From Dehalococcoidia bacterium (GTDB lineage: Bacteria > Chloroflexota > Dehalococcoidia > Lucifugimonadales > VXLM01): a DNA stretch of 64,000 nt. The notes beneath the pieces were generated by a model. That model did no database searches. It had not been told where the DNA came from and worked only from the letters and a program-made list of their open reading frames with translations. The stretch lies in the NCBI GenBank assembly GCA_034423035.1, contig DAOUJF010000025.1, forward strand, positions 349 to 64,348. Direction: 5' to 3'. Position 1 is the stretch's first letter; every line of letters starts with the position of its first letter. Positions 563 through 30,545 of the stretch are shown in pieces. The position numbers were made by a program, and so were the translations under genes.

Positions 563-1711
563 CTAGTCCGCGAGGTAGCCCGCCCACTGCTGCATGAGCA
601 CACGGCGACGGTCGAACAGGTCGGACCGGGCATATGCCTGCTCGACGCTGCCGCCAAGCTGATGCGCCAGAGCCGCCTCACCGACTGCCCACGGCGTGTC
701 GGTCTGTTCCATGGTCCACGTCTTGAACGAAGTTCGGAACCCGTGCACCGTCGCCCTGTCGGCAAGCCCGGACTTGCGGAGTATATTCGTCAAGGTCATG
801 TCGCTCAGCATCCGGCCAGGCCTCAGAGGAGACGGGAAGCATAGCCCCGAACCGTCGTCAAGTCGCTGGGCCAGTATCAACACGTCGATGGCCAGATCGC
901 TCAACGGTACCCGATGCTCCATGCCTGCCTTCATGCGTGAGCCGGGTATCGTCCACGATGCATCTTCGAGATCGATCTCGTTCCATGTGGCTCCCCTTGC
1001 CTCACCGGACCGCGACGCCGTGAGGACCAGGAATTTCAGGCAGTACTTCGAAGCTGGTGAAGTCTGGGACGCATCGACGGTTTTGAGAGCCGAAGCCACC
1101 TCCTGATAGGGAAGCGCCCTGAGATGGGCCTTGACCTTGGGCATGGACGGCAGAGCCCCGTCTATTGCTTCCCCCGCGGGGTTGGTCTCGATCAACTCGT
1201 TCGCCATCGCCCATCTGAAAATCGTTCGCATCCTCTGTCGGACACGCCGGGCCGTCTCGGGACGTGCGGACCATATAGGTGTGAGCACCGTCAACACGTC
1301 GGTGCGGCTAATGGTGTCGATGGGCATCTTGCCGATCTTGGGAAAAGCATGTCGTTCGAGAGTCTGAATCCATGCCCGGGTGTGGCTTCCGTTGCGCCAA
1401 CGAGGCTTGTTGGCTTCATGGACTGCATAGGCGGCCTCTCTGAAAGTGGGCGTAGAGGGTCGGCGTTTCTCCGCTACCGGGTCTCTCCCGTTGCCAATCG
1501 CCTCCCGATTGTCCGATGCGCGCTTCCTCGCCTGAGCCAGAGAGATAGTCGGATACCCGCCTAAGCCGACATCGCGTCGTCGACCGTCGACGGTTATCCG
1601 ATGCACCCAGCTCTTGCGGCCGTTCTTCTTTATGAACAGGTGCAGGCCGTCGCCGTCCGAGTAGCGGCCCGGTTCGCTGAGCGCCCTCACCCTTGTTGCC
1701 GACAGTTTCAA
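563..1711 (-). CDS. int: Tyrosine recombinase, P4-like integrase with N-terminal arm-binding (DUF4102-like) domain
   Basis: N-terminus KLSATRVRAL..GRYSDGDGLHLFIKKNGRKSW is typical of P4-type integrases. C-terminus carries HGFRTSF and a terminal ..AY.R region. Adjacent to tRNA. Confidence 0.9.
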   Translation of the reverse strand: MKLSATRVRALSEPGRYSDGDGLHLFIKKNGRKSWVHRITVDGRRRDVGLGGYPTISLAQARKRASDNREAIGNGRDPVAEKRRPSTPTFREAAYAVHEANKPRWRNGSHTRAWIQTLERHAFPKIGKMPIDTISRTDVLTVLTPIWSARPETARRVRQRMRTIFRWAMANELIETNPAGEAIDGALPSMPKVKAHLRALPYQEVASALKTVDASQTSPASKYCLKFLVLTASRSGEARGATWNEIDLEDASWTIPGSRMKAGMEHRVPLSDLAIDVLILAQRLDDGSGLCFPSPLRPGRMLSDMTLTNILRKSGLADRATVHGFRTSFKTWTMEQTDTPWAVGEAALAHQLGGSVEQAYARSDLFDRRRVLMQQWAGYLAD

Positions 1712-1902: not shown

Positions 1903-1978
1903 TGGTGGAGCTGGGGGGACTCGAACCCCCTACCTCTTCAATGCCATTGAAGCGCTCTCCCAGATGAGCTACAGCCCC
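1903..1978 (-). tRNA. tRNA-Ala (anticodon GGC), CCA encoded
   Basis: Reverse complement GGGGCTGTAGCTCATCTGGGAGAGCGCTTCAATGGCATTGAAGAGGTAGGGGGTTCGAGTCCCCCCAGCTCCACCA folds as a cloverleaf. It has a G3:U70 pair, anticodon loop ATGGCAT and T-loop GGTTCGAGTCC. Confidence 0.93.
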
Positions 1979-2108: not shown

Positions 2109-2975
2109 ATGGCAAAGAAGCGAGTTCTTATCACCGGCGCTGCCGGGTACGTCGCTGACAGAATGCTCCCGGCGTTTCAGGAGCGTTACGACCTGACGCT
2201 CCTTGATGCCAGTGTCAAGCCGAGCCCGGATAGGGCACATTCCAGCGCAGGTCCCGTGGATGGTGTGCAAATAGCTGATCTTCTCGATCCCGACCGGAGC
2301 AAGTACGCGCATCACTTCGAAGGCATAGACGCGGTCGTACACCTCGCGTACATCCGTCGGAGGGGCGAACCCATCGATCAATACGAGAGCCAGCGGGAAA
2401 ATGTGGATATGGCCTACAACGTGTTCCGCGCCGCATACGATGGGGGAGTTGAACGCGTGGTGGCAGCCAGTTCAAATCACGCCGCCAACTGGTACGAGCC
2501 TGCCCTGTTGCAACCTCGGAAGATGGAGTCGCTCGACCCCTACGATCTACCTCTCTCATACAACTTCTACGGCTGGTCGAAGGCTTCGTATGAGCATCTG
2601 GGATTTCTGTTTGCCAGCGGGACTTTCGGACGCAAGATGGGCATGGTGCTCGTTCGCATCGGCTCGCCCGGAGAGCTGGAGGTTGAAAGATTCTCTGACA
2701 GTGAGGCCGGTCTGAAGCGGAGCCTCGGTTCATACTTGAGCCAACGTGATCAGCTTCAGCTATTCATCAAGGCAATCGAGACGGAGAACATCGAAAACGA
2801 GCACGGTGTTCCCTGGCACGTCGTCTACGGAATCAGCAACAATACGAGGGCATACTGGTCACTGGTCAACGCCCGGCGAGTGCTGGATTACCGTCCCGAG
2901 GACGACGCGGAATCAAGATTCGCGGATGATCTTCGGGCAAGAGGTGAGATGGCACCTGGGAGAACACCCGGCTAG
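2109..2975 (+). CDS. NAD-dependent epimerase/dehydratase-family SDR (uronate-dehydrogenase-like)
   Basis: MAKKRVLITGAAGYV Rossmann motif, SSNH and YGWSK (YxxxK) motifs, GGAGG RBS upstream of ATG 2109. Confidence 0.75.
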   Translation: MAKKRVLITGAAGYVADRMLPAFQERYDLTLLDASVKPSPDRAHSSAGPVDGVQIADLLDPDRSKYAHHFEGIDAVVHLAYIRRRGEPIDQYESQRENVDMAYNVFRAAYDGGVERVVAASSNHAANWYEPALLQPRKMESLDPYDLPLSYNFYGWSKASYEHLGFLFASGTFGRKMGMVLVRIGSPGELEVERFSDSEAGLKRSLGSYLSQRDQLQLFIKAIETENIENEHGVPWHVVYGISNNTRAYWSLVNARRVLDYRPEDDAESRFADDLRARGEMAPGRTPG

Positions 2976-4056: not shown

Positions 4057-5490
4057 TTGGTAGGGAAGTGGAAACCTAAACCGGCGGACTCGGTGGTGCG
4101 GAGACCCCGTCGAGATGTCCTGCGTCCGGTCCACATTGAACTGGCCCCGGCCCGTGGACCGTCATCCGTTCTGAACCCCTCGCTCATCCTCATCTACGCA
4201 TTCGCAGGCCTGATTGCAATTGGAACACTCCTGCTTAGTATGCCCTTTACCCACCACGGAGACGGGTTTACGCCATTCATCGATGCCCTGTTTACCGCCA
4301 CTTCGGCTGCAACCGTCACAGGGCTCATCATTCAGGACACGGGGTCCTATTGGACCCTTGGAGGACAGGCGGTCATCCTGCTCCTGATGTTCATAGGTGG
4401 GCTGGGGATCATGACCATTGCCAGCGCCCTATTCATACTTGCAGGTCAGCGGATATCCTTGACCCAGAGACTCTTGATTCGCGAGACCGTGGGCACCGCG
4501 ACCTTCACGGATATCACGGCAATCACCGTGCGCATCGTCGTCTGGGCGATTGCCATCCAACTGGTCGGCTTTCTGATTCTCACGGCCCGGTTCTCATTCA
4601 TGTATGAACCGTTGGAAGCCGTCTGGCACGGCCTCTTCCAGGGAGTTTCCGGGTTCAATAACGCCGGGTTCGTATCGTTTCCAAACGCCAACAGCCTCGC
4701 GGAATTTCGTTCGGAAAGGATCATCACCGGGGTAATCGCTCTACTCATAGTAGTGGGAGGTCTCAGCTATTGGGTGATCGATGATGTCGCAAAAAGGCGA
4801 GGCTTCTCCAGGCTCACACTGAATTCCAAGCTCGTCCTCATCTTCACGGGTGCGCTCCTCCTGATCGGGGCCTTGGGATACTTCCTTGCCGAGGCCGGGA
4901 ACTCGCACACCTTGGGTAAACTCGGTCTAGTCGACCAAATTGCGGACTCTGTGTTCCATTCGGTCAACCGCACCTCGGGCTTCTCAACGACAGGCTTCGA
5001 GGAGACGAGGGAAGAGACCCATCTTCTCTACATCGTTCTCATGTTCATCGGCGGCGCATCGGCGTCGGTCGCCGGCGGGGTGAAGGTCAACACCTTCGCC
5101 ATCATCATATTCGCAATGGTAGCCGCGCTCTACGGAAGGACCAGGACTGTAGTCTTTTCAAGGCGCATTCCCGCCGTTCAGATTATATGGGCCCTCGTGA
5201 TCGTCAGCCTCGGATGCCTCTTTGCCTACGTGACGGCAATGGTCCTAACCTTCTTGGACGGCGGTAACCATGATTTCCTCGACCTGCTGTTTGAGGCCGT
5301 TTCAGCCCTGGGCACGGTAGGCTTCAGCACCGGCATCACTGCCGACCTTTCAGTGGCAAGTCAATACGTCCTGGCCGCTGCCATGTTCATCGGCCGGGTC
5401 GGCCCGCCCATCGCAATTGTCATCGCACTGTCCCGCCCCGATCGTGAGGGAATGTACCGGTACACCAGGGAGCGCGTGCTGCTCGGCTGA
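4057..5490 (+). CDS. TrkH/KtrB-family potassium transporter
   Basis: Multi-pass membrane protein with repeated selectivity-filter-like motifs GFNNAGF, SGFSTTGF and LGTVGFSTG. The TTG start is uncertain. Confidence 0.85.
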   Translation: MVGKWKPKPADSVVRRPRRDVLRPVHIELAPARGPSSVLNPSLILIYAFAGLIAIGTLLLSMPFTHHGDGFTPFIDALFTATSAATVTGLIIQDTGSYWTLGGQAVILLLMFIGGLGIMTIASALFILAGQRISLTQRLLIRETVGTATFTDITAITVRIVVWAIAIQLVGFLILTARFSFMYEPLEAVWHGLFQGVSGFNNAGFVSFPNANSLAEFRSERIITGVIALLIVVGGLSYWVIDDVAKRRGFSRLTLNSKLVLIFTGALLLIGALGYFLAEAGNSHTLGKLGLVDQIADSVFHSVNRTSGFSTTGFEETREETHLLYIVLMFIGGASASVAGGVKVNTFAIIIFAMVAALYGRTRTVVFSRRIPAVQIIWALVIVSLGCLFAYVTAMVLTFLDGGNHDFLDLLFEAVSALGTVGFSTGITADLSVASQYVLAAAMFIGRVGPPIAIVIALSRPDREGMYRYTRERVLLG

Positions 5491-5580
5491 ACCAGACGAG
5501 CAATGGCCCCCGATGCATTGGCCGGTGTTTCTGTGCTCTAATTGATACTCGTAAATTGCATTTTCGTAAGGAGGACAACA

Positions 5581-5901
5581 ATGCCAAAATACCTGTTTCA
5601 GGGTTCTTACACGATGGAAGGCCTTGGTGGACTTGTGACGGAAGGCGCCGCTGGGCGTCGAGAAATGGCCGAGAACCTGGCCGCCTCACTGGGAGGTAGT
5701 GTCGAGGCCTTTTACTACGCCTTTGGAGACAGTGATCTCTACGCCATCGCCGATCTGCCCGACGATGCCGCTGCCGCCGCCGTGTCCCTCAGTGTCGGGG
5801 CTTCAGGCACGGCGTCCATCAAGACGACGGTGCTGGTCACTCCGGAGACCATAGACGAGGCAATCGTACGGTCGGCAGATTACCAACCGCCTGCAGGCTA
5901 G
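5581..5901 (+). CDS. GYD domain-containing protein
   Basis: MPKYLFQGSYT..FYYAFGDSDLYAIADLPDD is the GYD family signature. AAGGAGG RBS is present. Confidence 0.8.
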   Translation: MPKYLFQGSYTMEGLGGLVTEGAAGRREMAENLAASLGGSVEAFYYAFGDSDLYAIADLPDDAAAAAVSLSVGASGTASIKTTVLVTPETIDEAIVRSADYQPPAG

Positions 5902-5948: not shown

Positions 5949-7421
5949 CTACGGCTGTTTAGGCGTAACGTAGTCAACCCCGATCTCAACGCCCTCCAGG
6001 CTCACCTTGCTCGAAAGGTTGGAGGGCCTAGAGAGGTGTGTGACGGATATCTCGTTCACCCCATCGACAACATCGTCCCACTCCAAGGGAAACTCGAAGG
6101 TCGAGTACGTGTACCCATACGTCGTGTAGATCACGTCGTCTTGTGACAGTTCCTTACCGTTGAGGCGCACGCTCATCACGTCATGCGATGTCGATTCGAC
6201 CAGCTTCAGTTCCAGGACGGCGTTCGCGTCGGATGAGTCCTTGACTATCGTCAGGCTAACCGTTGCCGGGTCTGCTTCCGGTCCGACATCGAGCTCGACA
6301 GGTAGGGGAGCGTTGTATCCGAACATAACGCACTTGTCATGCCGAGGCGTCATGTAGTAGCGCTTAGGCTTCTCGAACAGCACGTCGGGATCGCCGATCT
6401 CCGTCAGAATTTGCCGCTGTTCAGACCCTATCGGCCACGGGTACCACGGCAGGTACAGGGCATCGGCTCCCCGACTCCAGTAGGCCGCCGCCGCCGCTCT
6501 GTAGTACTCTAGTCCCGCGTACTCGTCTCGGTTCGGCCCCAGTACCGACCCCATGGCCGGGTAGACCACGCAATCTCCCTTTCGCGCAAGGTCGATCACC
6601 CACTCGAACGGGAAGTCCGGGTCGATGGGCATGTGGCTGTAGACGTTCGGCACCACGAAATCGAGCAGTCCCTCTTCCAACCACGTTTCAATGTCGAAAC
6701 CGGTGTGGTTGTTGGCCGCCAGCGTCGGCAGAATTCTCGCCCCTATGTCGATGGACTTGCCCTTCATCTCACCGGCTTTATTCGCAACACGCCTGAGATC
6801 GCGCAGGAAGTCCGTCAAGACGTGCATATTGACCGCTATCTCGGCAGCCTCGAAGTAGTAGGGGTCAAAGGTCAGGTCCAGTTCGAGGCCGTCCACGTCG
6901 TATCGGATTAACGTTTCCTCAGCAATGGCGAACCTCTCAGCGCGCACCTCCGGGTAGACCCAGTTGAACGCGTTCTTGCGGTCCGGCGAGTCGTCGCCCT
7001 TGAGCACCCACTCAGGGTGGTCGATTTTGAACTGCCAGTTGTGGGCGTTGTTCACATCCGCAGGATCGGATGAGTGGGTCAGACGAAGACTGCCGATGAA
7101 GTCCATACCAACCTTATGAGCGCGATCGATCATCACGTTCAGCGGATCATGGCCCTGCTTGATGAGCCGCATGGTGTTCTCGTACCCGCGCCAGCTTGCA
7201 ACGTCGGGAATCACGTCCAGATGCGCGGCGAATACGTCGGCGTGTTTCGAGTCGTGGAACACCGTCGGCCCCACCCCGAAACCCCAGACGAACGTATCGA
7301 CTCCAGTTCCCGCCACGGCGTCGATGGTCGATGTCGCCTCCGTCATGCTCATTGGCGGCTCATGCACGTAGTAGTGGTAGTGCCGGGCGTCGTCGTAGAA
7401 GATCAGTCGTCGCTTGCTCAT
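5949..7421 (-). CDS. Uncharacterised TIM-barrel-like (glycoside-hydrolase-like) protein with C-terminal beta-sandwich, paralogue 1
   Basis: Alternating beta/alpha pattern RRLIFYDDARH, GTGVDTFVWGFG, MDFIGSLRL, VDGLELDL. Paralogous to 7495..8976 and 63171..64000. I cannot name a family. Confidence 0.6.
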   Translation of the reverse strand: MSKRRLIFYDDARHYHYYVHEPPMSMTEATSTIDAVAGTGVDTFVWGFGVGPTVFHDSKHADVFAAHLDVIPDVASWRGYENTMRLIKQGHDPLNVMIDRAHKVGMDFIGSLRLTHSSDPADVNNAHNWQFKIDHPEWVLKGDDSPDRKNAFNWVYPEVRAERFAIAEETLIRYDVDGLELDLTFDPYYFEAAEIAVNMHVLTDFLRDLRRVANKAGEMKGKSIDIGARILPTLAANNHTGFDIETWLEEGLLDFVVPNVYSHMPIDPDFPFEWVIDLARKGDCVVYPAMGSVLGPNRDEYAGLEYYRAAAAAYWSRGADALYLPWYPWPIGSEQRQILTEIGDPDVLFEKPKRYYMTPRHDKCVMFGYNAPLPVELDVGPEADPATVSLTIVKDSSDANAVLELKLVESTSHDVMSVRLNGKELSQDDVIYTTYGYTYSTFEFPLEWDDVVDGVNEISVTHLSRPSNLSSKVSLEGVEIGVDYVTPKQP

Positions 7422-9010: not shown

Positions 9011-10417
9011 CTAACCGATCGGCGGCCTCATCCGCGCAGTCTCCGACACTGCTTCCAGAGCGCTCGCCGCGTGGAGCAGAAGCCGGTCATTCAGGTGGCC
9101 CGCCGCAAGCTGCACGCCAATAGGCAGGCCGTCCGACGACATCCCGAACGGAACCGAGATCGCCGGGTGCCCGGTCATCCCGAAGGTCGCCGTGATGTTG
9201 GCGGAGTGTCCGGCGGCCGCCATTCGTCCGTCCACGTCCAGCACCGCGCTGTCGTGTGGCGGAGCCGTTACCGGAGAGGTCGGCAATAGCAGCAGATCGT
9301 GGTCGCCGAAGAACGTCGTAACGTCTCGCGATACCGACTCATGCTTGTCCATAGAGGCAAGGTACTCGGCCATCGACGGCTTTGGCAAGTTGAGGAGGGC
9401 GGAAATCGAACCGGAAAGCTCGTCCTCACGACCCTCCACAAACGGCTTGAAGTAGTGGTCGGCCTCGACGATCAGCATGTCCATCGTAAAGGCAATCGGT
9501 AGCCTGTCGCGCCAGTCGAAATCGACGTCCTCCACGATGCAGCCCAGCGACTCAAGCGCGGAGGCCGCCTTGCGGACGGTATTCTGAATTTCTCCCATGA
9601 CCGGCTCGAACGGGCCTTCCGCCATGACGCCCACGCGGAGCGGCGGCAACTCTGCCCCGAACCATGGCATGTCGTCCACGCCACGTCCAAGCGCGTACGA
9701 ATCGACGTGATCGGGACCGCTCATCACGACCAGTGACATGGCGATGTCGCGCACCGACCGCGCCATTGGGCCGATGTGCATCCTCCGCGACATTATCTCC
9801 GGCCACCCGCCTGTCAGAGGGATCAGGCCGTGAGTGGGCTTGTAACCGACGATGTTGCAGTAGTGGGACGGCAGCCTGTTTGATCCGCCGAGGTCGGTCC
9901 CGATGCCGAGCGGCGAGAGTCCCGCTGAAATGGCCGACGCCTCGCCCCCGCTGGAACCACCCGATGTCCTTTCGAGGTTCCAGGGGTTGAGTGTTCTCCC
10001 AAACAGGTCGTTCACAGTCTCCGCCGTCAGCGCGAACTCTGGACAGTTCGTCTTCCCGATGACGATAGCCCCCGCATCCTTCAGCCGCCTAACGGCGGTG
10101 GCGTCAGTCTCCGGGACTCGGTCCGCATACAGCAGCGACCCTCGCGTGCTGCGTATCCCTTCGGTGTCGAACACCTCCTTCACGGTGAAGGGAACACCAT
10201 GCAGGGGGCCCAGCGATTCGCCGCTCATCACTGCCCGTTCCGCCTCCCGCGCCTGGTCGAGAGCACAGTCGTTCGGAACCACGATGGCATTGATGGCGGA
10301 GTTTACGGAATCACTCCGGTCGAGGTGCGCTTGAACGACCTCCACCGGCGACACGTCCTTCGACCGAATCCGTTCCGCCAGTTCGGTGGCGTCGGAGTAG
10401 AACAGCTCAGATGTCAC
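9011..10417 (-). CDS. Amidase (amidase-signature family, GatA-like)
   Basis: GGSSGGEASAISAG amidase-signature motif and conserved K..S..S context. 7-nt gap to the downstream gene. Confidence 0.88.
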   Translation of the reverse strand: MTSELFYSDATELAERIRSKDVSPVEVVQAHLDRSDSVNSAINAIVVPNDCALDQAREAERAVMSGESLGPLHGVPFTVKEVFDTEGIRSTRGSLLYADRVPETDATAVRRLKDAGAIVIGKTNCPEFALTAETVNDLFGRTLNPWNLERTSGGSSGGEASAISAGLSPLGIGTDLGGSNRLPSHYCNIVGYKPTHGLIPLTGGWPEIMSRRMHIGPMARSVRDIAMSLVVMSGPDHVDSYALGRGVDDMPWFGAELPPLRVGVMAEGPFEPVMGEIQNTVRKAASALESLGCIVEDVDFDWRDRLPIAFTMDMLIVEADHYFKPFVEGREDELSGSISALLNLPKPSMAEYLASMDKHESVSRDVTTFFGDHDLLLLPTSPVTAPPHDSAVLDVDGRMAAAGHSANITATFGMTGHPAISVPFGMSSDGLPIGVQLAAGHLNDRLLLHAASALEAVSETARMRPPIG

Positions 10418-10426
10418 GACCCACTC

Positions 10427-11194
10427 CTAGTACACCGAGTATCCGCCGTCTACGGGAATCGCCGTTCCCGTCACGTAGTCCGATGCGCCGCTCGCCAGAA
10501 ACGCGGCGATGCCTGCGAAGTCCGACGGAACGCCCCAGCGACCGTCGGGAATCCTCGACGTTATCTGGGCGTGCCTCTCCGGGAATCTCTCCTGCAGCGG
10601 CGCCGTCAAATCGGTCTCGATCCAGCCCGGCAATATGGCGTTGACCTGGATGTTGTCCTTCGCCCAGGCGATGGCAAGGCTCTTCGATAGCTGGACGATT
10701 CCACCCTTGCTGGCCGCATACGGCGCGCCCCAGTCGAGACCGAAGATCGATGTCATCGAACCGATGTTGATGATCTTCCCGCCCCCCTGCCTCGCCATGT
10801 GTGGGTACGCCTCGCGACTGCACAGGAACGCTCCTCGCAGGTTCACGTCCTGCACGAGGTCCCAGTCCGCTGCTTCATAGTCCTCCGGTCGACTCCGCAC
10901 CGTAGTCCCGGCGTTGTTCACAAGGATGTCAAGACGCCCGTACCGCTCCATCGTTTCTTCAACGGCGGCCTTTATCGACCCTTCATCCGCAACGTCCAAG
11001 GAGATGCCGCAAGCGTCCGATCCCAGTGTCCGCAACTCCTCGACTGCCGCGTCGGACTTGTCCTTATTCCTCGCAGCCACGACGACCGCGGCGTTCGCGC
11101 CGGCCAGTCCCATGGCGATCCCTAGACCTATCCCGCCGTTCCCGCCTGTAACAATTGCGACTCTGCCTGTGAGGTCGAATAGCTCCGTTGACAT
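10427..11194 (-). CDS. SDR-family oxidoreductase (classical short-chain dehydrogenase)
   Basis: VAIVTGGNGGIGLG cofactor motif, NNAG, YAASKGG catalytic YxxxK. Start chosen at the Met preceded by GAGGA. Confidence 0.88.
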   Translation of the reverse strand: MSTELFDLTGRVAIVTGGNGGIGLGIAMGLAGANAAVVVAARNKDKSDAAVEELRTLGSDACGISLDVADEGSIKAAVEETMERYGRLDILVNNAGTTVRSRPEDYEAADWDLVQDVNLRGAFLCSREAYPHMARQGGGKIINIGSMTSIFGLDWGAPYAASKGGIVQLSKSLAIAWAKDNIQVNAILPGWIETDLTAPLQERFPERHAQITSRIPDGRWGVPSDFAGIAAFLASGASDYVTGTAIPVDGGYSVY

Positions 11195-11357: not shown

Positions 11358-12416
11358 GTGAATCTATCCGTCGTTCGACATCGCTTGGAGCAGCGCGAGG
11401 ACTCGCTTTCGCCCTTCGCGGCCCGCTCGAAGGACAGCCATCGCGAGCTACCGGAAGATCCTTCCGACGTTCGCACCGAGTACCAGCGCGACCGCGACCG
11501 CATCATTCACTCCAAGGCGTTCCGGCGGTTGAAGCACAAGACGCAGGTCTTCATCGCCCCGTCGGGCGACCACTACGTCACCCGCTTGACGCACACGCTG
11601 GAGGTCGCGCAGATCGCCCGGACCATAGCCCGCGCGCTCAACCTCAACGAGGACCTGGCGGAGGCCATCGCACTTGGTCACGACCTCGGCCACACCCCGT
11701 TCGGCCACGTCGGGGAGAAGGAGGTCGACGAGCTTCACCCTGCCGGTTTCACGCACGCGAGCCAGAGCCTTCGCATCGTCGAAAAGCTTGAACGGGAGGG
11801 GCGGGGGTTGAATCTGACATTCGATGTCCGGCATGGCATAGTGAGCCACTCCAAGCCCAAGGGCGACGTCATGGGCGGTGCGACCCCGGAAGACCTGACC
11901 CTGGAGGCGCAGATCGTTCGACTGTCCGACGCCGTCGCCTACCTGAACCATGATATCCCTGACGCCTTCCGTGCAGGGGTTCTCAAATACGACGACATGC
12001 CGAAGGTCGTGAAGGAACGGCTCGGCGACAGGCACTCGAAGCGAATCGACGCGATGGTCACCGACATCGTGACTGCATCATGGGCCGCCACCGGCGAGAA
12101 CGGTCTTGGTTCCCGGCCCGTCATAAGTATGAGCGACGAGATGCGGGAGACCGTCAACGTCCTGCGCGACTTCATGTTCGAGCGATTCTACGTGCCCGAA
12201 GACGAGGGCGAGGAGGGAATCGCAGCCCGCGAGATCGTTCGCCTGCTGTACCGGCATTTCGACGACAATCGGAGTACAATACCCGGCGAGTACCATGACG
12301 AGGAGTGTGCCGTGGTCGACTACATCGCAGGGATGACCGATCAGTACGCTATCCGCATGGCGGAACGCATCGAGCCCGGCATCGGCAAGGTCTTTGCCAT
12401 GAGAAGGGTCGGATGA
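11358..12416 (+). CDS. dgt: dGTPase-like HD-domain triphosphohydrolase (Dgt family)
   Basis: YQRDRDRIIHSKAFRRLKHKTQVF and THTLEVAQIAR..LGHDLGHTPFGH motifs. GTG start uncertain (the track ORF begins at 11280). Confidence 0.85.
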   Translation: MNLSVVRHRLEQREDSLSPFAARSKDSHRELPEDPSDVRTEYQRDRDRIIHSKAFRRLKHKTQVFIAPSGDHYVTRLTHTLEVAQIARTIARALNLNEDLAEAIALGHDLGHTPFGHVGEKEVDELHPAGFTHASQSLRIVEKLEREGRGLNLTFDVRHGIVSHSKPKGDVMGGATPEDLTLEAQIVRLSDAVAYLNHDIPDAFRAGVLKYDDMPKVVKERLGDRHSKRIDAMVTDIVTASWAATGENGLGSRPVISMSDEMRETVNVLRDFMFERFYVPEDEGEEGIAAREIVRLLYRHFDDNRSTIPGEYHDEECAVVDYIAGMTDQYAIRMAERIEPGIGKVFAMRRVG

Positions 12417-12664
12417 CCCCGAACGACCGAGTCCTCACACGCCTCGTCCGCAACCAAACGAAGCTCATTCAAGAGCACCTCGAAGCGATGCAGCGCGATA
12501 CGCACGGCGTGGAATACGCCCGGTGGCGGCGAGAGGTCGACGATATCTGGAAGGGAGTCTTCGAGAACGTCAACGAGATGCAGCCGGAGCCGCAGATGGA
12601 AACACTCGAAGAGATTCGTGAGCTCTGGACGATGTATGTAGCGCACTACGTTGGCGACCAATAG
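12413..12664 (+). CDS. Hypothetical small acidic helical protein
   Basis: Its ATG overlaps the dgt stop (ATGA). No recognisable motif. Confidence 0.45.
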   Translation: MTPNDRVLTRLVRNQTKLIQEHLEAMQRDTHGVEYARWRREVDDIWKGVFENVNEMQPEPQMETLEEIRELWTMYVAHYVGDQ

Positions 12665-27471: not shown

Positions 27472-27858
27472 TCAGTCCAAGACCGCCACGGCGTCGATCT
27501 CGATGTGGACGTTCGCACCGGGGAACCGCGCCCCGACGATGGTGTTGGTAGGGTAGTCGTCACCGAAGAACTCGTGGTAGATGTCGGCCTGCTCCCCGTC
27601 GAAGGGGAACCAGTCGTCCGTATTGTTGACAAAAGTAGTCAGCTTTACGATGTCGGACGGCTTGCCGCCCTCGGCCACCACCATACGGGTGAGCCTGTCG
27701 AGCACGACGCGAAGCTGCTCCATCGGCGAGCCGTTCTCCGCTTCGGACCTGTTCGCCGTGCAGCCTGACAGGAACAGCATGTTTCCCGCCCGAACGCCAC
27801 GGCTGTAGTGCGGCCCCGCAGCGTAGATATCTTCGAATCCGATCCGTCGGTTCTTCAT
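27472..27858 (-). CDS. RidA/YjgF-family reactive-intermediate deaminase
   Basis: 128 aa with the ..GNMLFLSG.. and ..PTNTIVGA..LPGANVHIEIDAV C-terminal pattern typical of RidA. Confidence 0.85.
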   Translation of the reverse strand: MKNRRIGFEDIYAAGPHYSRGVRAGNMLFLSGCTANRSEAENGSPMEQLRVVLDRLTRMVVAEGGKPSDIVKLTTFVNNTDDWFPFDGEQADIYHEFFGDDYPTNTIVGARFPGANVHIEIDAVAVLD

Positions 27859-28067
27859 AGGGGATGATATGTTCTAGTACCCATACCAGGCACCACCTAC
27901 TCCATCTCCACCCTAATTCTCAAAATTAATTTAGATATAGTATAAAATTCGGCTGAAGTGCATTTCTATTATTCCGAACATTTATAGAATTCTAAACGGA
28001 ACACATATTCCGAAAAATGTCAAGACGAAACCCTAATTAGTCCAACTTATTTTAGCACTAGATCCTC

Positions 28068-28096
28068 TTGACTGCTAACAAATGGTCGAGTATCAT
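28068..28096 (+). promoter_or_regulatory. Sigma-70-like promoter TTGACT-17 nt-TATCAT in an AT-rich context
   Basis: -35 at 28068-28073, -10 at 28091-28096, exact 17-nt spacer, AT-rich UP-like region upstream. It lies 82 nt upstream of the tRNA-like element. Confidence 0.4.
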
Positions 28097-28177
28097 ACGC
28101 TCGCAGTGGCAGATACAAACAGATAGAGACGACTCTCCTCAGCAAATCGCTGATCAAGCCGTCCCTACCATGATCAT

Positions 28178-28247
28178 GGGGGTCCCAAGGTCGGCGGCCG
28201 GGCTTCTAATCCTTCGCCGGAGGGTTCGACTCCCTCGACCTCCACCA
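28178..28247 (+). ncRNA. 70-nt tRNA-like element (perfect acceptor stem + T-arm + CCA) lacking a canonical D-arm and anticodon stem; possible pseudo-tRNA or att remnant
   Basis: GGGGGTC (28178-84) pairs with GACCTCC (28237-43), including G3:U70. A73 then CCA. T-arm is GAGGG-TTCGACT-CCCTC. The 3-prime half reads as a tRNA half with loop CTTCTAA, but the 5-prime half is 6-8 nt too short. Confidence 0.45.
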
Positions 28248-28252
28248 CTATA

Positions 28253-28278
28253 GGATCCCCGTTTGGCGACGGAGATCC
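28253..28278 (+). other. Hairpin GGATCCCCGT-ttggcg-ACGGAGATCC directly after the CCA end
   Basis: 10-bp stem with one mismatch, read directly. There is no U-tract, so terminator function is uncertain. Confidence 0.35.
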
Positions 28279-28723
28279 CAAGAGCGCCTACAGTTGAACA
28301 TAATCATGAGAATTCTGCAACTCTCATGTCTTGGTGATTGTATTATAGAAGTTCAGAACACTTGTGTGCAAGGACTTTTGAGTATTCATTAATGGCATTA
28401 TTCCCTTGACGAACAGCCAACGTCTTCGTCTGTTTCCACTCGTCACAAAACACCCGAATGTCTAGGTCTTGACCCGCCGCCTTCAGCTACTCCCTCAGCC
28501 AGTCACCAAACTACATGGCCCAGTCAGCTTACGTTACGGTCCTCATGGTAGTGGTGTTTCCCAATATCCCCTTGTTCTCAGGACTGATGAAGATCGCGCT
28601 TCGTGGGACATTTCGGGACTCTTCCTAGTGTACAGCCATCGAGAGCGAAGAAGTCAGCTTCGATCCGGATAGAGAGTTACCTGAAGCTGAGCAGGTGTGG
28701 CCCACCGGCCAGGCCCCCTTTTT

Positions 28724-28753
28724 CTGTAACATTTTGTAACATTCTGTAACTTC
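28724..28753. repeat. Three tandem 10-bp repeats (c/t)TGTAAC(a/t)T(t/c)
   Basis: ctgtaacatt ttgtaacatt ctgtaacttc has exact 10-bp phasing. It follows a GC-rich hairpin region and a T5 run. Confidence 0.7.
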
Positions 28754-28778
28754 TCGGCGAATCTTCGTATCTGAGATG

Positions 28779-28797
28779 CGGGGGTCTCCCCCGTTTG
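28779..28797 (+). terminator. Possible intrinsic terminator CGGGGG-tct-CCCCCG-TTTG
   Basis: 6-bp GC stem, 3-nt loop, short T run. No annotated gene lies upstream on this strand. Confidence 0.3.
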
Positions 28798-28984
28798 ATC
28801 CCTCCTCGCACCGCCTCGGTACGAGAATGAGTCCTGTTGTTCCGTCCTATCCTATTCACGCAGGGCTTTGCACTACGCATACGTACTGCAAGACTCATAA
28901 TAGATTATGTGTTCTTATTCGTCAAGTCCGGTTCATGATGAGTGAGTGATCGGAGTTGGTGAGGAGAACATCCCTCTCCCCTAT

Positions 28985-29011
28985 GGATACCCGCTCTCGC
29001 GGGTATGACGG
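28985..29011. repeat. Family B-type hairpin, copy B5 (GGATACCCGCtctcGCGGGTATgacgg)
   Basis: Same architecture and trailing GACGG as the other family B hairpins. Confidence 0.6.
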
Positions 29012-29105
29012 TGGCTGTGTGCGTTAGGCGTTCTCACGGAGTCTGAACAGTTACTCATAGTGAACTTGGGGGAAGAGGCGATGAGAAGGGGCGGTACCGG
29101 CCCTT

Positions 29106-30008
29106 CTACATTGAAATCAGATCCCGAACCATCTCGACGGCTCGCTCGACATCGACGCCGACCGCAACCCGCACTGTTCCATCTCCGTAGTCCGCAACGG
29201 TCCGTCCGCGCTCTTCGCCTTCGTTTACCACCGACACCTTCGCCGCGCGATACGAAAGGACGTCCGGCTCGATTGCCGCCGCAACGGCCAGCGGATCGTG
29301 CAGGTGGAACTCATCCGTCACGTCAAGCTCCTGGAATCGGTTCGTGAGAATTCGATTGCCCAGTTGGGCCTGCTTGGAGGAGCCCTCGAACCAGTGCGGG
29401 CCTCCGTCCCGGTGCATGAATGTCTCGTACGTGACGTCGAGACCAACCAGCGTGACGGGCACTCCCGACTCGAAGACGGCGTTGGCGGCCCAGGGGTCCT
29501 CATGGATGTTGAACTCGGCGTGAGGCGTGATGTTCCCCGCAACTCCGACGGCGCCGCCCATCACGATTATCTCCGGTATCGCGTCCGCAATATCCGGGCG
29601 ATTGTCCAGCACGGCTGCGACGTTGGTGAGCGGGCCGATCGCAAGGATTGAGAGTTCGCCCGGAGACGCGGAGATGCGGTCGCGCAGGAAATCCACCGCG
29701 TCCTCGCGAACCGGCTCCAGCGTCGAGCCGGGCAGGCTGACGCCGAGTCCGTCGGAACCGTGAAAGTGGTACGCATGGGTGTACGATCCATGAAGCGGCC
29801 TGTCAGCGCCGACCGCGATGGGCATGGCGCTGCTTGGCCCTTCGAGATACTCCATCAGCCTGAGAGCGTTGTCGGTCGTCTGTGCGAGCGTCGCGTTTCC
29901 GCCGACAGTCGTGATGCCCTCTACGGACAGGTCAGGGGAGTTCAGCGCCATCATGATCGCCAGGACGTCGTCCGTCCCGGGATCGGTGTCGATAATGACT
30001 CGTCGCAT
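29106..30008 (-). CDS. Nucleoside hydrolase (inosine/uridine-preferring family)
   Basis: MRRVIIDTDPGTDDVLAIMMAL is the DxDxxxDD nucleoside hydrolase fingerprint. Start set at this Met. Confidence 0.9.
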   Translation of the reverse strand: MRRVIIDTDPGTDDVLAIMMALNSPDLSVEGITTVGGNATLAQTTDNALRLMEYLEGPSSAMPIAVGADRPLHGSYTHAYHFHGSDGLGVSLPGSTLEPVREDAVDFLRDRISASPGELSILAIGPLTNVAAVLDNRPDIADAIPEIIVMGGAVGVAGNITPHAEFNIHEDPWAANAVFESGVPVTLVGLDVTYETFMHRDGGPHWFEGSSKQAQLGNRILTNRFQELDVTDEFHLHDPLAVAAAIEPDVLSYRAAKVSVVNEGEERGRTVADYGDGTVRVAVGVDVERAVEMVRDLISM

Positions 30009-30122
30009 AGTTTTGTCTCTCGATACGGAGAAGTGAGTGTCACATAGTACCCTACGTTCTTTGTGTCGCGCTTGTCGGGTGGATATAATGGCAGACATCC
30101 GAAGCCCGACGAGAGGGGCCTT

Positions 30123-30545
30123 ATGGCGACCATCCAAAGCCTTCAAAAGCGGTACCAGGACCTTGACCGGCAGTTTGAAATGAAGCCGGAGACGGTCATT
30201 GATCCCTCCTGTCTGCTGGCCTTCGACTATGACTACGCGGGCGGGGACAGCGTGGTCGTCATCGACATGGACGAGTTCACCGCCGTATGTCCATGGACGG
30301 GCCTGCCCGACTTCGGTTCGCTCGAAATCACCTACGTCCCCGGCGAGCTCTGCATCGAGCTGAAGTCGCTAAAGTACTATCTGCTCTCATACACCGGAGT
30401 CGGCATCGTCCAGGAACACGCGGCCAACCGCATCCTGCGCGATCTCGTCGAGGTGTGCCGTCCCGCCCGGATGTCCATCCTCCTCGATTACAATGTGCGA
30501 GGCGGTCTGCACACGACCGTCACGGCGAGGTACGAGGCGGACTAG
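30123..30545 (+). CDS. queF: NADPH-dependent 7-cyano-7-deazaguanine reductase (type I QueF)
   Basis: EFTAVCPWTGLPDFGSLEITY (catalytic Cys) and SLKYYLLSY..G..QEH QueF motifs. Confidence 0.88.
   Translation: MATIQSLQKRYQDLDRQFEMKPETVIDPSCLLAFDYDYAGGDSVVVIDMDEFTAVCPWTGLPDFGSLEITYVPGELCIELKSLKYYLLSYTGVGIVQEHAANRILRDLVEVCRPARMSILLDYNVRGGLHTTVTARYEAD

Follow-up and report, generated by a model that had tools for sequence, protein, structure and literature searches.

A candidate phage-type tRNA-like RNA gene with alanine identity elements in an AT-rich insertion of a Chloroflexota chromosome

We analyzed a 64,000-nucleotide window (positions 349–64,348 of contig DAOUJF010000025.1) and identified a 70-nt tRNA-like RNA gene at positions 28178–28247 of its plus strand. 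This element lies in a 1247-bp spacer (27859–29105) between a RidA-family gene (27472–27858, minus strand) and a nucleoside hydrolase gene (29106–30146, minus strand). Judged from the named homologues of the nucleoside hydrolase, the window derives from a Chloroflexota chromosome. Its housekeeping genes include a primase, a sigma-70 factor, aconitase-family subunits, and an aspartyl-tRNA synthetase. The element and its flanking signals occupy an AT-rich segment of the spacer (28012–28538, boundaries approximate) with a GC content of ~45–50%, compared with 60% for the window. No plausible coding open reading frame (ORF) surrounds the element, the longest encoding 73 aa. An independent Logan assembly reproduces the element region exactly, which shows that it is not an assembly artefact.

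The element was delineated by reading of the sequence, the Rfam transfer-messenger RNA (tmRNA) model, a minimum-energy fold, ARAGORN in mitochondrial mode, a family alignment, and a covariance model. Its 5′ acceptor strand (GGGGGUC, 28178–28184) pairs at all seven positions with the 3′ acceptor strand (GACCUCC, 28237–28243), a G3:U70 wobble included. Between these strands lie, in order, a 7-nt D-region (CCAAGGU, 28185–28191), a long arm (28192–28219), and a canonical T-arm (GAGGG/UUCGACU/CCCUC, 28220–28236). The D-region has the GG typical of a D-loop and is not accompanied by a D-stem. In the minimum-energy fold, the long arm consists of a 6-bp helix (CGGCGG/UCGCCG), a CC bulge, a 3-bp helix (GGG/CCU), and an 8-nt loop (CUUCUAAU, 28203–28210). 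The 3′ acceptor strand is followed by the discriminator A73 (28244) and an encoded CCA (28245–28247). All of these features are on the plus strand, and all helices are intact in the window copy despite its AT-rich surroundings.

A preliminary description of this DNA had already placed the 7-bp acceptor stem with its G3:U70 pair, A73, the CCA, and the canonical T-arm where we find them. It had also noted a CGGCG/CGCCG helix, which is real and in fact 6 bp long, but the 18-nt loop that this helix was said to close contains the CC bulge, the GGG/CCU stem, and the 8-nt loop. The same description found no proper D or anticodon arm. This holds for the D-stem and is too strong for the anticodon side, where a 9-bp arm carries flanks of the C32–U33…A37 type. 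An alternative register of the long arm, the one adopted by ARAGORN, has a 7-nt loop (CUUCUAA) with UCU in the anticodon position. The minimum-energy fold of the element (−30.4 kcal/mol) is ordinary for its composition (z = −0.64), and support for the structure thus comes from homology and covariation rather than from thermodynamics.

Annotation tools gave divided results. ARAGORN at default settings does not call the element and reports only the host tRNA-Ala(GGC) (1903–1978) in the window. Rfam at curated thresholds likewise reports this tRNA and nothing else. In mitochondrial mode, or with the threshold set to 80%, ARAGORN accepts the element as a tRNA of the D-loop type, with TCT as anticodon and two C–U mismatches in a 5-bp anticodon stem. 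At relaxed thresholds, the Rfam tmRNA model (RF00023) matches the element with 29.3 bits (E = 5e-10 over a 601-base stretch), a score below the gathering threshold of this family (47 bits). Model positions 1–374 are aligned end to end, and 16 nt stand in for 318 internal positions. Within the Rfam clan of this model, which includes tRNA (RF00005), no other family scored as high, and tmRNA is the best-matching known family for the element.

The element shares several features with the tRNA-like domain (TLD) of tmRNA. These include the acceptor stem with G3:U70, A73, and CCA, the T-arm (GGGUUCGAnUCCC), and a GG-containing analogue of the D-loop that is not part of a D-stem. tmRNA's mRNA-like domain (resume codon, tag frame, and pseudoknots) is absent from the model alignment; it is by such an absence that the TLD-only subtype of tmRNA is defined. 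No tag-like reading frame was seen by eye downstream of the element. The 3–4-bp D-stem, 5-bp anticodon stem, and variable loop of a canonical tRNA are also missing, while the loop CUUCUAA is itself canonical.

We identified five homologues of the element in IMG/VR. A lower-scoring match in contig L090, whose cap resembled that of the window, prompted a scan of this collection for a window-like cap and T-loop. The homologues lie in contigs L134 (10467–10539), L090 (560–630), L169 (5906–5977), L159 (4958–5028), and L216 (7482–7551), all of which are classed as viral and present phage or transposase-rich surroundings. The closest homologue, in L134, is 80% identical to the element over 65 nt (E = 5e-8). 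By manual count, about 12 of its matched bases lie outside the search pattern. Its arm (CGGCG..GGGCUUCU.AUCCUU.GCCG) is almost identical to that of the window.

Compensatory changes support a common structure for these RNAs. In an alignment of the element with its five homologues (A3, n = 6), 96.7% of cells are paired and seven pairs show double changes; none of 500 shuffles reached these values, and slid registers of the alignment are only 54–62% paired. The covarying pairs are acceptor pairs 4–7 and three of the five T-stem pairs. RNAalifold, given no structure, recovers the acceptor stem, the T-arm, and the long arm together with a 2-bp mini D-stem, and 11 of its 21 pairs are compensatory. 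Arm sequences vary among the homologues with complementarity kept. The long arm abuts the T-arm without a variable loop, which is a trait of the whole family in this alignment. The D-region measures 9–13 nt in the homologues and forms a 2-bp mini stem around NNGGU, compared with 7 nt in the window.

G1–C72, G2–C71, G3:U70, and A73 are invariant in all six family members. Because one of the homologue scans left the acceptor stem unconstrained, conservation of this identity set for alanyl-tRNA synthetase (AlaRS) is an independent observation. It is the strongest pointer to function.

We further built a covariance model (R1) from the five viral sequences, leaving out the window sequence. Applied to the whole window, R1 matches 28178–28247 at full length (model positions 1–71) with 62.6 bits (E = 1.4e-11); the host tRNA-Ala(GGC) scores 31.2 bits. 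The five training sequences score 67–87 bits and the next-best non-members 31–49 bits. In ~1.8 Mb of further loci, the window element is outscored by the training sequences alone, and the next matches reach 37–49 bits. The element thus belongs to a small and apparently undescribed RNA family that is otherwise seen in phage DNA. The literature that we found comprised reports on the tmRNA of phage DS6A, on tmRNAs lacking a coding sequence (CDS-less), and on allo-tRNAs, with no description of this family. A chance likeness of GC-rich sequence to parts of a tRNA would fit the unexceptional folding energy. It is refuted, on sequence grounds, by the Rfam E-value, the R1 score, and the length and identity of the L134 match, and we give it practically no credence.

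The segment 28012–28538 has no counterpart in the same spacer of any of eight syntenic relatives, and the element is absent from the contigs of all eight, implying that it arrived by insertion. In the relatives' loci, Rfam finds nothing comparable and nothing scores with R1. The spacer measures only 70–100 bp in L127, L128, and the closest relatives L132 and L133; the latter two have 93–94% hydrolase identity and a 70-bp spacer. It extends to 478–1333 bp in L002, L003, and L005, where the longer spacers match window positions 28604–29102 and, weakly, 27917–28011. We found no convincing terminal repeats or small mobile element bounding the insertion and no second copy in the window. No integrase, phage, or transposase gene adjoins the element, the nearest integrase being 26 kb away beside another tRNA. 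Neither the strain-specific insertion nor the phage type of the element had been seen in the preliminary description. A deleted native ssrA locus was considered as an origin and rejected: the relatives have no tmRNA at this site, and the ancestral spacer is 70–100 bp.

This neighborhood has further features of its own. The long spacers contain tandem 10–11-nt repeats of the form G(T/G)(A/G)ACATT(C/T)(T/C) (window positions 28605, 28726, and 28736) and a core of ~72 nt (28892–28963) kept at 87–93% identity. Operator-like sites are one possible explanation for them, and a small non-coding element is another. The start codon of the window RidA gene lacks the Shine–Dalgarno sequence found in relatives. 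In L133, a transposase-like gene pair (helix-turn-helix plus DDE_3, probably IS630-type) lies just beyond the RidA gene (4652–5796), a further sign that the neighborhood tolerates insertions. At the other end of the window, a P4-type tyrosine integrase gene (563–1711, minus strand; domains Arm-DNA-bind_3, Phage_int_M, and Phage_integrase) stands directly 3′ of the tRNA-Ala(GGC) gene (1903–1978, minus strand). This arrangement is the classic signature of a tRNA-integrated genomic island, here running off the left end of the window.

Several candidate signals flank the element on the plus strand. A consensus scan identified a sigma-70-like promoter match, TTGACT-17-TATCAT (28068–28096), with the end of its −10 hexamer 81 nt upstream of the mature 5′ end. 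The preliminary description had reported the same match with a spacing of 82 nt. The L090 homologue is preceded by TTGAGT-17-TATCAT, which ends 59 nt upstream and has the same −10 hexamer. If the promoter is used, positions 28100–28177 would form a 5′ leader removed by RNase P. The predicted fold of this leader is unremarkable (z = −0.48), and the tRNA-like fold persists inside the putative 193-nt transcript. Downstream of the CCA is a hairpin (28253–28278; −13.6 kcal/mol, z = −2.1), which had been described as having 10 bp and in fact consists of 5 + 5 bp with one internal mismatch.

The 3′ arm of the trailing hairpin contains GGAGATCC, which is similar to the 5′ end of the element. A 12-nt imperfect direct repeat (28178–28189 and 28271–28282) flanks the element body. 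The copy at 28271 resembles the spacer of the relative L003, in a reading of the printed sequences rather than a scored alignment, and is thus probably ancestral spacer and not a duplication. We also considered a permuted two-piece tmRNA, prompted by the 5′-like repeat GGAGATCCCAAG after the CCA. This candidate was rejected: the permuted model gives only 17.1 bits (E = 0.24), no tag-like frame was seen downstream, and the repeat resembles the L003 spacer. The window and L134 share a trailer 8-mer, TATAGGAT, at 28249–28256 and 10540–10547, respectively. The same 8-mer occurs 3′ of a tRNA-Phe gene in L135 (~7016–7023, position estimated). The window sequence around it, CCACCACTATAGGA, resembles CACTATAGG, which we take to be the initiation region of a T7-type phage promoter.

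Among the origins proposed in the preliminary description was a chimera left at an attachment (att) site, in which the 3′ half would be the duplicated 3′ end of a tRNA or tmRNA and the 5′ pairing would be accidental. From loop to CCA, the element does read like the 3′ half of a tRNA-Arg(UCU), in the manner of an attP-type block, and tRNA-Arg 3′-half fragments occur in viral contigs L192, L158, and L161. The integrase beside tRNA-Ala(GGC) indicates that islands integrate in this genome, and the direct repeat flanks the element body. Against this origin, five unrelated contigs show conservation of the 5′ acceptor strand, the D-region, and the 5′ arm strand, together with covariation between these parts and their partners. 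Moreover, the nearest integrase is distant and belongs to another tRNA, and the second repeat copy is probably ancestral. An intact tRNA or tmRNA gene with the same 3′ half, the finding that would have marked the element as a simple integration scar, was not found in the window, GTDB representative genomes, JGI metagenomes, or IMG/VR. Covariation largely refutes an att-scar origin, which, as judged from these sequences, is effectively excluded.

Searches with shorter queries were similarly negative. The 28-mer 3′ end has no match in IMG/VR or GTDB representatives, and a gapped pattern fixed on the acceptor stem has none in GTDB or JGI metagenomes. A 22-mer lacking the CCA returned a single match from JGI metagenomes (L131), a chance match inside a protein-coding region, and none from IMG/VR. 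The first two genome scans required an encoded CCA and could miss tRNA genes without one. BLAST of the spacer against plasmids and phages gave no match, and BLAST of the 85-nt element against phages gave generic T-arm matches only.

The element could also be a genuine phage-type RNA gene that is an unexpressed leftover of a past phage or mobile insertion, still intact because the insertion is recent. Consistent with this, its AT-rich surroundings contain no plausible coding ORF, and neither a phage gene nor a transposase gene adjoins it. It also occupies a hypervariable spacer in which all relatives manage without it. It is a singleton in all collections searched, and its promoter is a consensus match of a sort that this DNA contains in excess. 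Set against these points are the preservation of all 21 base pairs, the T-loop, A73, and the CCA; the score of 62.6 bits against a model blind to the window; and the recurrence of the −10 hexamer TATCAT at a comparable distance in L090. Each of the three is still compatible with a recent, undecayed relic. We take this explanation seriously and nevertheless consider it rather unlikely.

The homologues provide a second context in which to view the element. L134 is a phage contig of 27% GC in which the homologue lies between two tRNA-Tyr genes of a tRNA array (10369–10829). Also present in this phage are genes for a full tmRNA (64.7 bits), a polynucleotide kinase-phosphatase of the tRNA-repair type, and a peptide deformylase. 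Together, these genes (with features at 6503–6916 and 11735–12661, both on the minus strand, in addition to the array) form a dense translation and RNA-repair module. The L169 contig carries a large terminase. In L090, the homologue is 60 nt from a divergent TnpB/IS605 OrfB gene (690–1826), and IS1595/ISXO2-like transposase genes lie near the homologues in L159 (3960–4919) and L216 (8148–9008). A consistent TnpB/IS1595 link was considered and rejected: such genes are adjacent in three of the five homologues, but their orientation and distance differ each time. We treat the transposase adjacency as a hot-spot effect, though it could also be a coincidence or a real association.

The position of the L134 homologue within a tRNA array is among several observations that would fit a true decoder. 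On this account, the element is a tRNA with a miniature D-arm that is charged with alanine and reads AGA or the quadruplet UAGA, acting as a missense or frameshift suppressor of phage origin. By our reckoning, the ~9–10 stacked layers of the long arm equal the anticodon-plus-D limb of a normal tRNA. The 7-nt loop of the window, with anticodon UCU, has the canonical C32, U33, and A37, and in an 8-nt register it reads CU-UCUA-AU, with all members conforming to CU-UCNN-AU. The D-loop tRNA call by ARAGORN in mitochondrial mode, with anticodon TCT, also fits. Cloverleaf-like relatives in L151 and L172, which have the same alanine-type acceptor, are called by this program as tRNA-Arg(tct) or tRNA-Arg(tcg). 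Compact phage RNAs with alanine-type acceptors and stop-anticodon loops (L051, CUA; L068, UUA; L298, CUA) point the same way. Precedents exist in an engineered D-arm-less tRNA (PMC11551756) and in alanine insertion by tRNAs with G3:U70 (PMC5389517).

Other features of the family argue against decoding. With the 7-nt register, five of the six members have C or U at position 37, where functional tRNAs nearly always carry a purine. The register of the anticodon stem is ambiguous, the standard 5-bp stem having two C–U mismatches, and there is no variable loop. Translating AGA as alanine would be harmful in L134, where, from its base composition of 27% GC, AGA is expected to be a common arginine codon. 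No natural bacterial decoder lacking a D-stem is known (PMC11551756). We regard a decoding role for the element as improbable. That the element and its phage relatives are translation-active D-stem-less tRNAs reading AGA-type or four-base codons as alanine seems a little more doubtful still. If this proved true, natural decoders outside mitochondria that lack a cloverleaf would be known for the first time, and these RNAs would act as phage-borne missense or frameshift suppressors.

Two observations concern these relatives themselves. The compact tRNA-like genes of L051, L298 (CUA), and L068 (UUA), with stop-anticodon-like loops and an alanine-type acceptor (G3:U70 and A73), may be alanine-inserting suppressor tRNAs of stop-reassigning phages. 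A second mini-element lies directly after the one in L151 (downstream of 823); its acceptor stem is GGGGCTG/CAGCTCC and its T-loop is non-canonical, which shows that elements of this type can occur in tandem.

The best reading of the sequence is that the element is an intact copy of a phage-type, compact, alanine-identity tRNA-like RNA gene, probably acquired horizontally in a short AT-rich insertion. On balance, we lean toward the view that it is a tRNA mimic that accepts alanine and is functional, or was so until very recently. This view follows the option of a genuine tRNA-like or mini-tmRNA-like RNA raised in the preliminary description. That option is favored by tmRNA as the best-matching model, by the TLD-only architecture, and by the compensatory changes in the phage homologues.

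A mechanism can be proposed for such a mimic. The RNA would be transcribed, perhaps from the promoter-like site 81 nt upstream, and would fold into an acceptor/T-arm minihelix with a GG-containing D-region and one long arm. RNase P would cut at G1, and the encoded CCA would leave the 3′ end ready for charging. The set G1–C72, G2–C71, G3:U70, and A73 suffices for AlaRS even on minihelices. As the whole set is present, AlaRS would be expected to charge the RNA with alanine. The resulting alanyl-tRNA mimic would then act on the translation apparatus and not as a normal decoder.

A number of points weigh against this reading of the element as a functional mimic. Transcription, processing, alanylation, and the molecular target are all steps that we infer. 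The promoter match is generic, and such matches are enriched in the AT-rich DNA (six found compared with 1.3 expected). The trailing hairpin (28253–28278) is not followed by a T-run and therefore does not qualify as a classical terminator. GTDB representative genomes, JGI metagenomes, and IMG/VR yielded neither a second copy of the element nor an orthologue, so that it stands as a singleton. The homologues were found with the window's own loop pattern, so conservation of the loop reflects ascertainment and is circular. In addition, the tRNA-like hits were chosen by eye, and the family is small (n = 6). Its members score below the Rfam tmRNA threshold (20.7–39.8 bits), and those in L134 and L216 are unreported at the E-values used.

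The most specific of these points concerns the neck of tmRNA (5′ UUCGAC/3′ GGAC, with tandem G–A pairs, in helix P2a), which is not found in the element. In the model alignment, the neck is replaced by UCGGCGG/UCGCCG, in which all pairs are Watson–Crick or G–U, and two D-loop positions are deleted. By its sequence, then, the element is not a standard TLD. We take the UUCGAC/GGAC neck to be the SmpB-binding site; if so, an element without it is a doubtful SmpB decoy. The nearest documented analogy would be the TLD-only tmRNA of phage DS6A, viewed as an inhibitor or competitor in trans-translation, and the missing neck weakens that analogy.

We identified, among the IMG/VR matches listed, dozens of TLD-only tmRNA genes of 58–81 nt that carry the GGUUUCGAC...GGAC signature. 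Several of these score 52–76 bits, above the Rfam tmRNA threshold, and have no tag region; several adjoin phage tRNA arrays. Examples occur in L126 (1467–1547, minus strand), L010 (3031–3110, plus strand), L040 (1464–1544, plus strand), L105 (2898–2977, plus strand), and L013 (176–235, minus strand), with dozens more in L228–L342. Contig L126, near a phage tRNA array of >20 genes, also has two below-threshold matches, at 426–615 and 2364–2441 (both minus strand). One is to a group I intron (47.3 bits, threshold 50) and the other to a twister-P1 ribozyme (40.1 bits, threshold 67.2).

Mini-tmRNAs without a tag have so far been regarded as curiosities. These observations instead suggest that small alanine-identity tRNA mimics are numerous in phage DNA and come in two or more designs. 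The first comprises true TLD-only tmRNAs with a conserved neck. The second, that of the element, has a long anticodon-like arm and no neck, and one copy of it is now in a bacterial chromosome. The members tested are missed by ARAGORN and by Rfam at curated thresholds, and a dedicated covariance model would fix their annotation. If alanine-charged, such RNAs would give mobile DNA a new means of influencing host translation, with ribosome rescue, AlaRS itself, anticodon-directed defense nucleases, and decoding as possible targets. They also offer a natural test case of how little of a tRNA the bacterial machinery needs.

Among known systems, CDS-less tmRNAs occur in the mitochondria of jakobids. 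The tmRNA of phage DS6A has been listed as ‘TLD only’ (Hudson et al., 2014; PMC4131195). A similar TLD-only molecule was found, according to the citation in that paper, to inhibit trans-translation strongly, perhaps by titrating SmpB (Mao et al., 2009, cited in PMC4131195). CDS-less plastid tmRNA forms of ~65 bp have been reported in Mallomonadaceae in a 2025 database paper (PMC11915505). DS6A is the only phage TLD-only example in the literature that we found, beside a few organelles, and the class looks far commoner in phages. We located the DS6A element at L129 28478–28560. Its Rfam tmRNA score (43.2 bits) is also below threshold, with the same style of alignment.

The element resembles TLD-only tmRNAs in its size class (~60–85 nt), its 7-bp acceptor stem with G3:U70 and A73, its canonical T-arm, and its GG-containing D-region without a D-stem. 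It further shares with them a single capped helix at the exit of helix P2 and the lack of a tag frame, and its homologues, like those molecules, are carried on phage or mobile DNA. Unlike the element, DS6A keeps much of the neck, and many of the IMG/VR phage TLD-only genes (those of 52–76 bits) keep it fully. The capped helix of the element is also longer and ends in an anticodon-like loop, and its D-region is 2–3 nt shorter. The element is a new variation on the TLD-only or tRNA-mimic theme, lacking one defining feature of tmRNA and carrying in addition an anticodon-like arm.

Comparison with tRNAs gives a complementary picture. Like tRNA-Ala and alanine minihelices, the element has the G1–C72, G2–C71, G3:U70, and A73-CCA end and a T-arm, and its 3′ 28 nt are 86% identical to the host tRNA-Ala(GGC). 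Unlike tRNA-Ala, it has no D-stem, no GCN-reading anticodon, and no variable loop. Natural G3:U70 tRNAs with non-alanine anticodons have been shown to insert alanine in Escherichia coli (Mukai et al., 2017; PMC5389517) and were proposed to be missense or nonsense suppressors or regulatory RNAs (PMC5389517). Allo-tRNAs, like the element, are non-canonical tRNA-like genes of bacteria and phages, some with G3:U70 and a foreign anticodon. They differ in having 8/4 or 9/3 acceptor/T branches, full D-arms, and long variable arms, compared with a 7/5 branch and neither D-stem nor variable arm in the element. Finally, the D-arm-less tRNAs of mitochondria, such as mt tRNA-Ser(AGY), and the engineered mini HisT, which works in E. 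coli (PMC11551756), share with the element a short connector in place of the D-arm and an extended stem on the anticodon side. Natural examples of these are known from mitochondria alone, and, unlike them, the element retains the D-region GG and a canonical T-loop.

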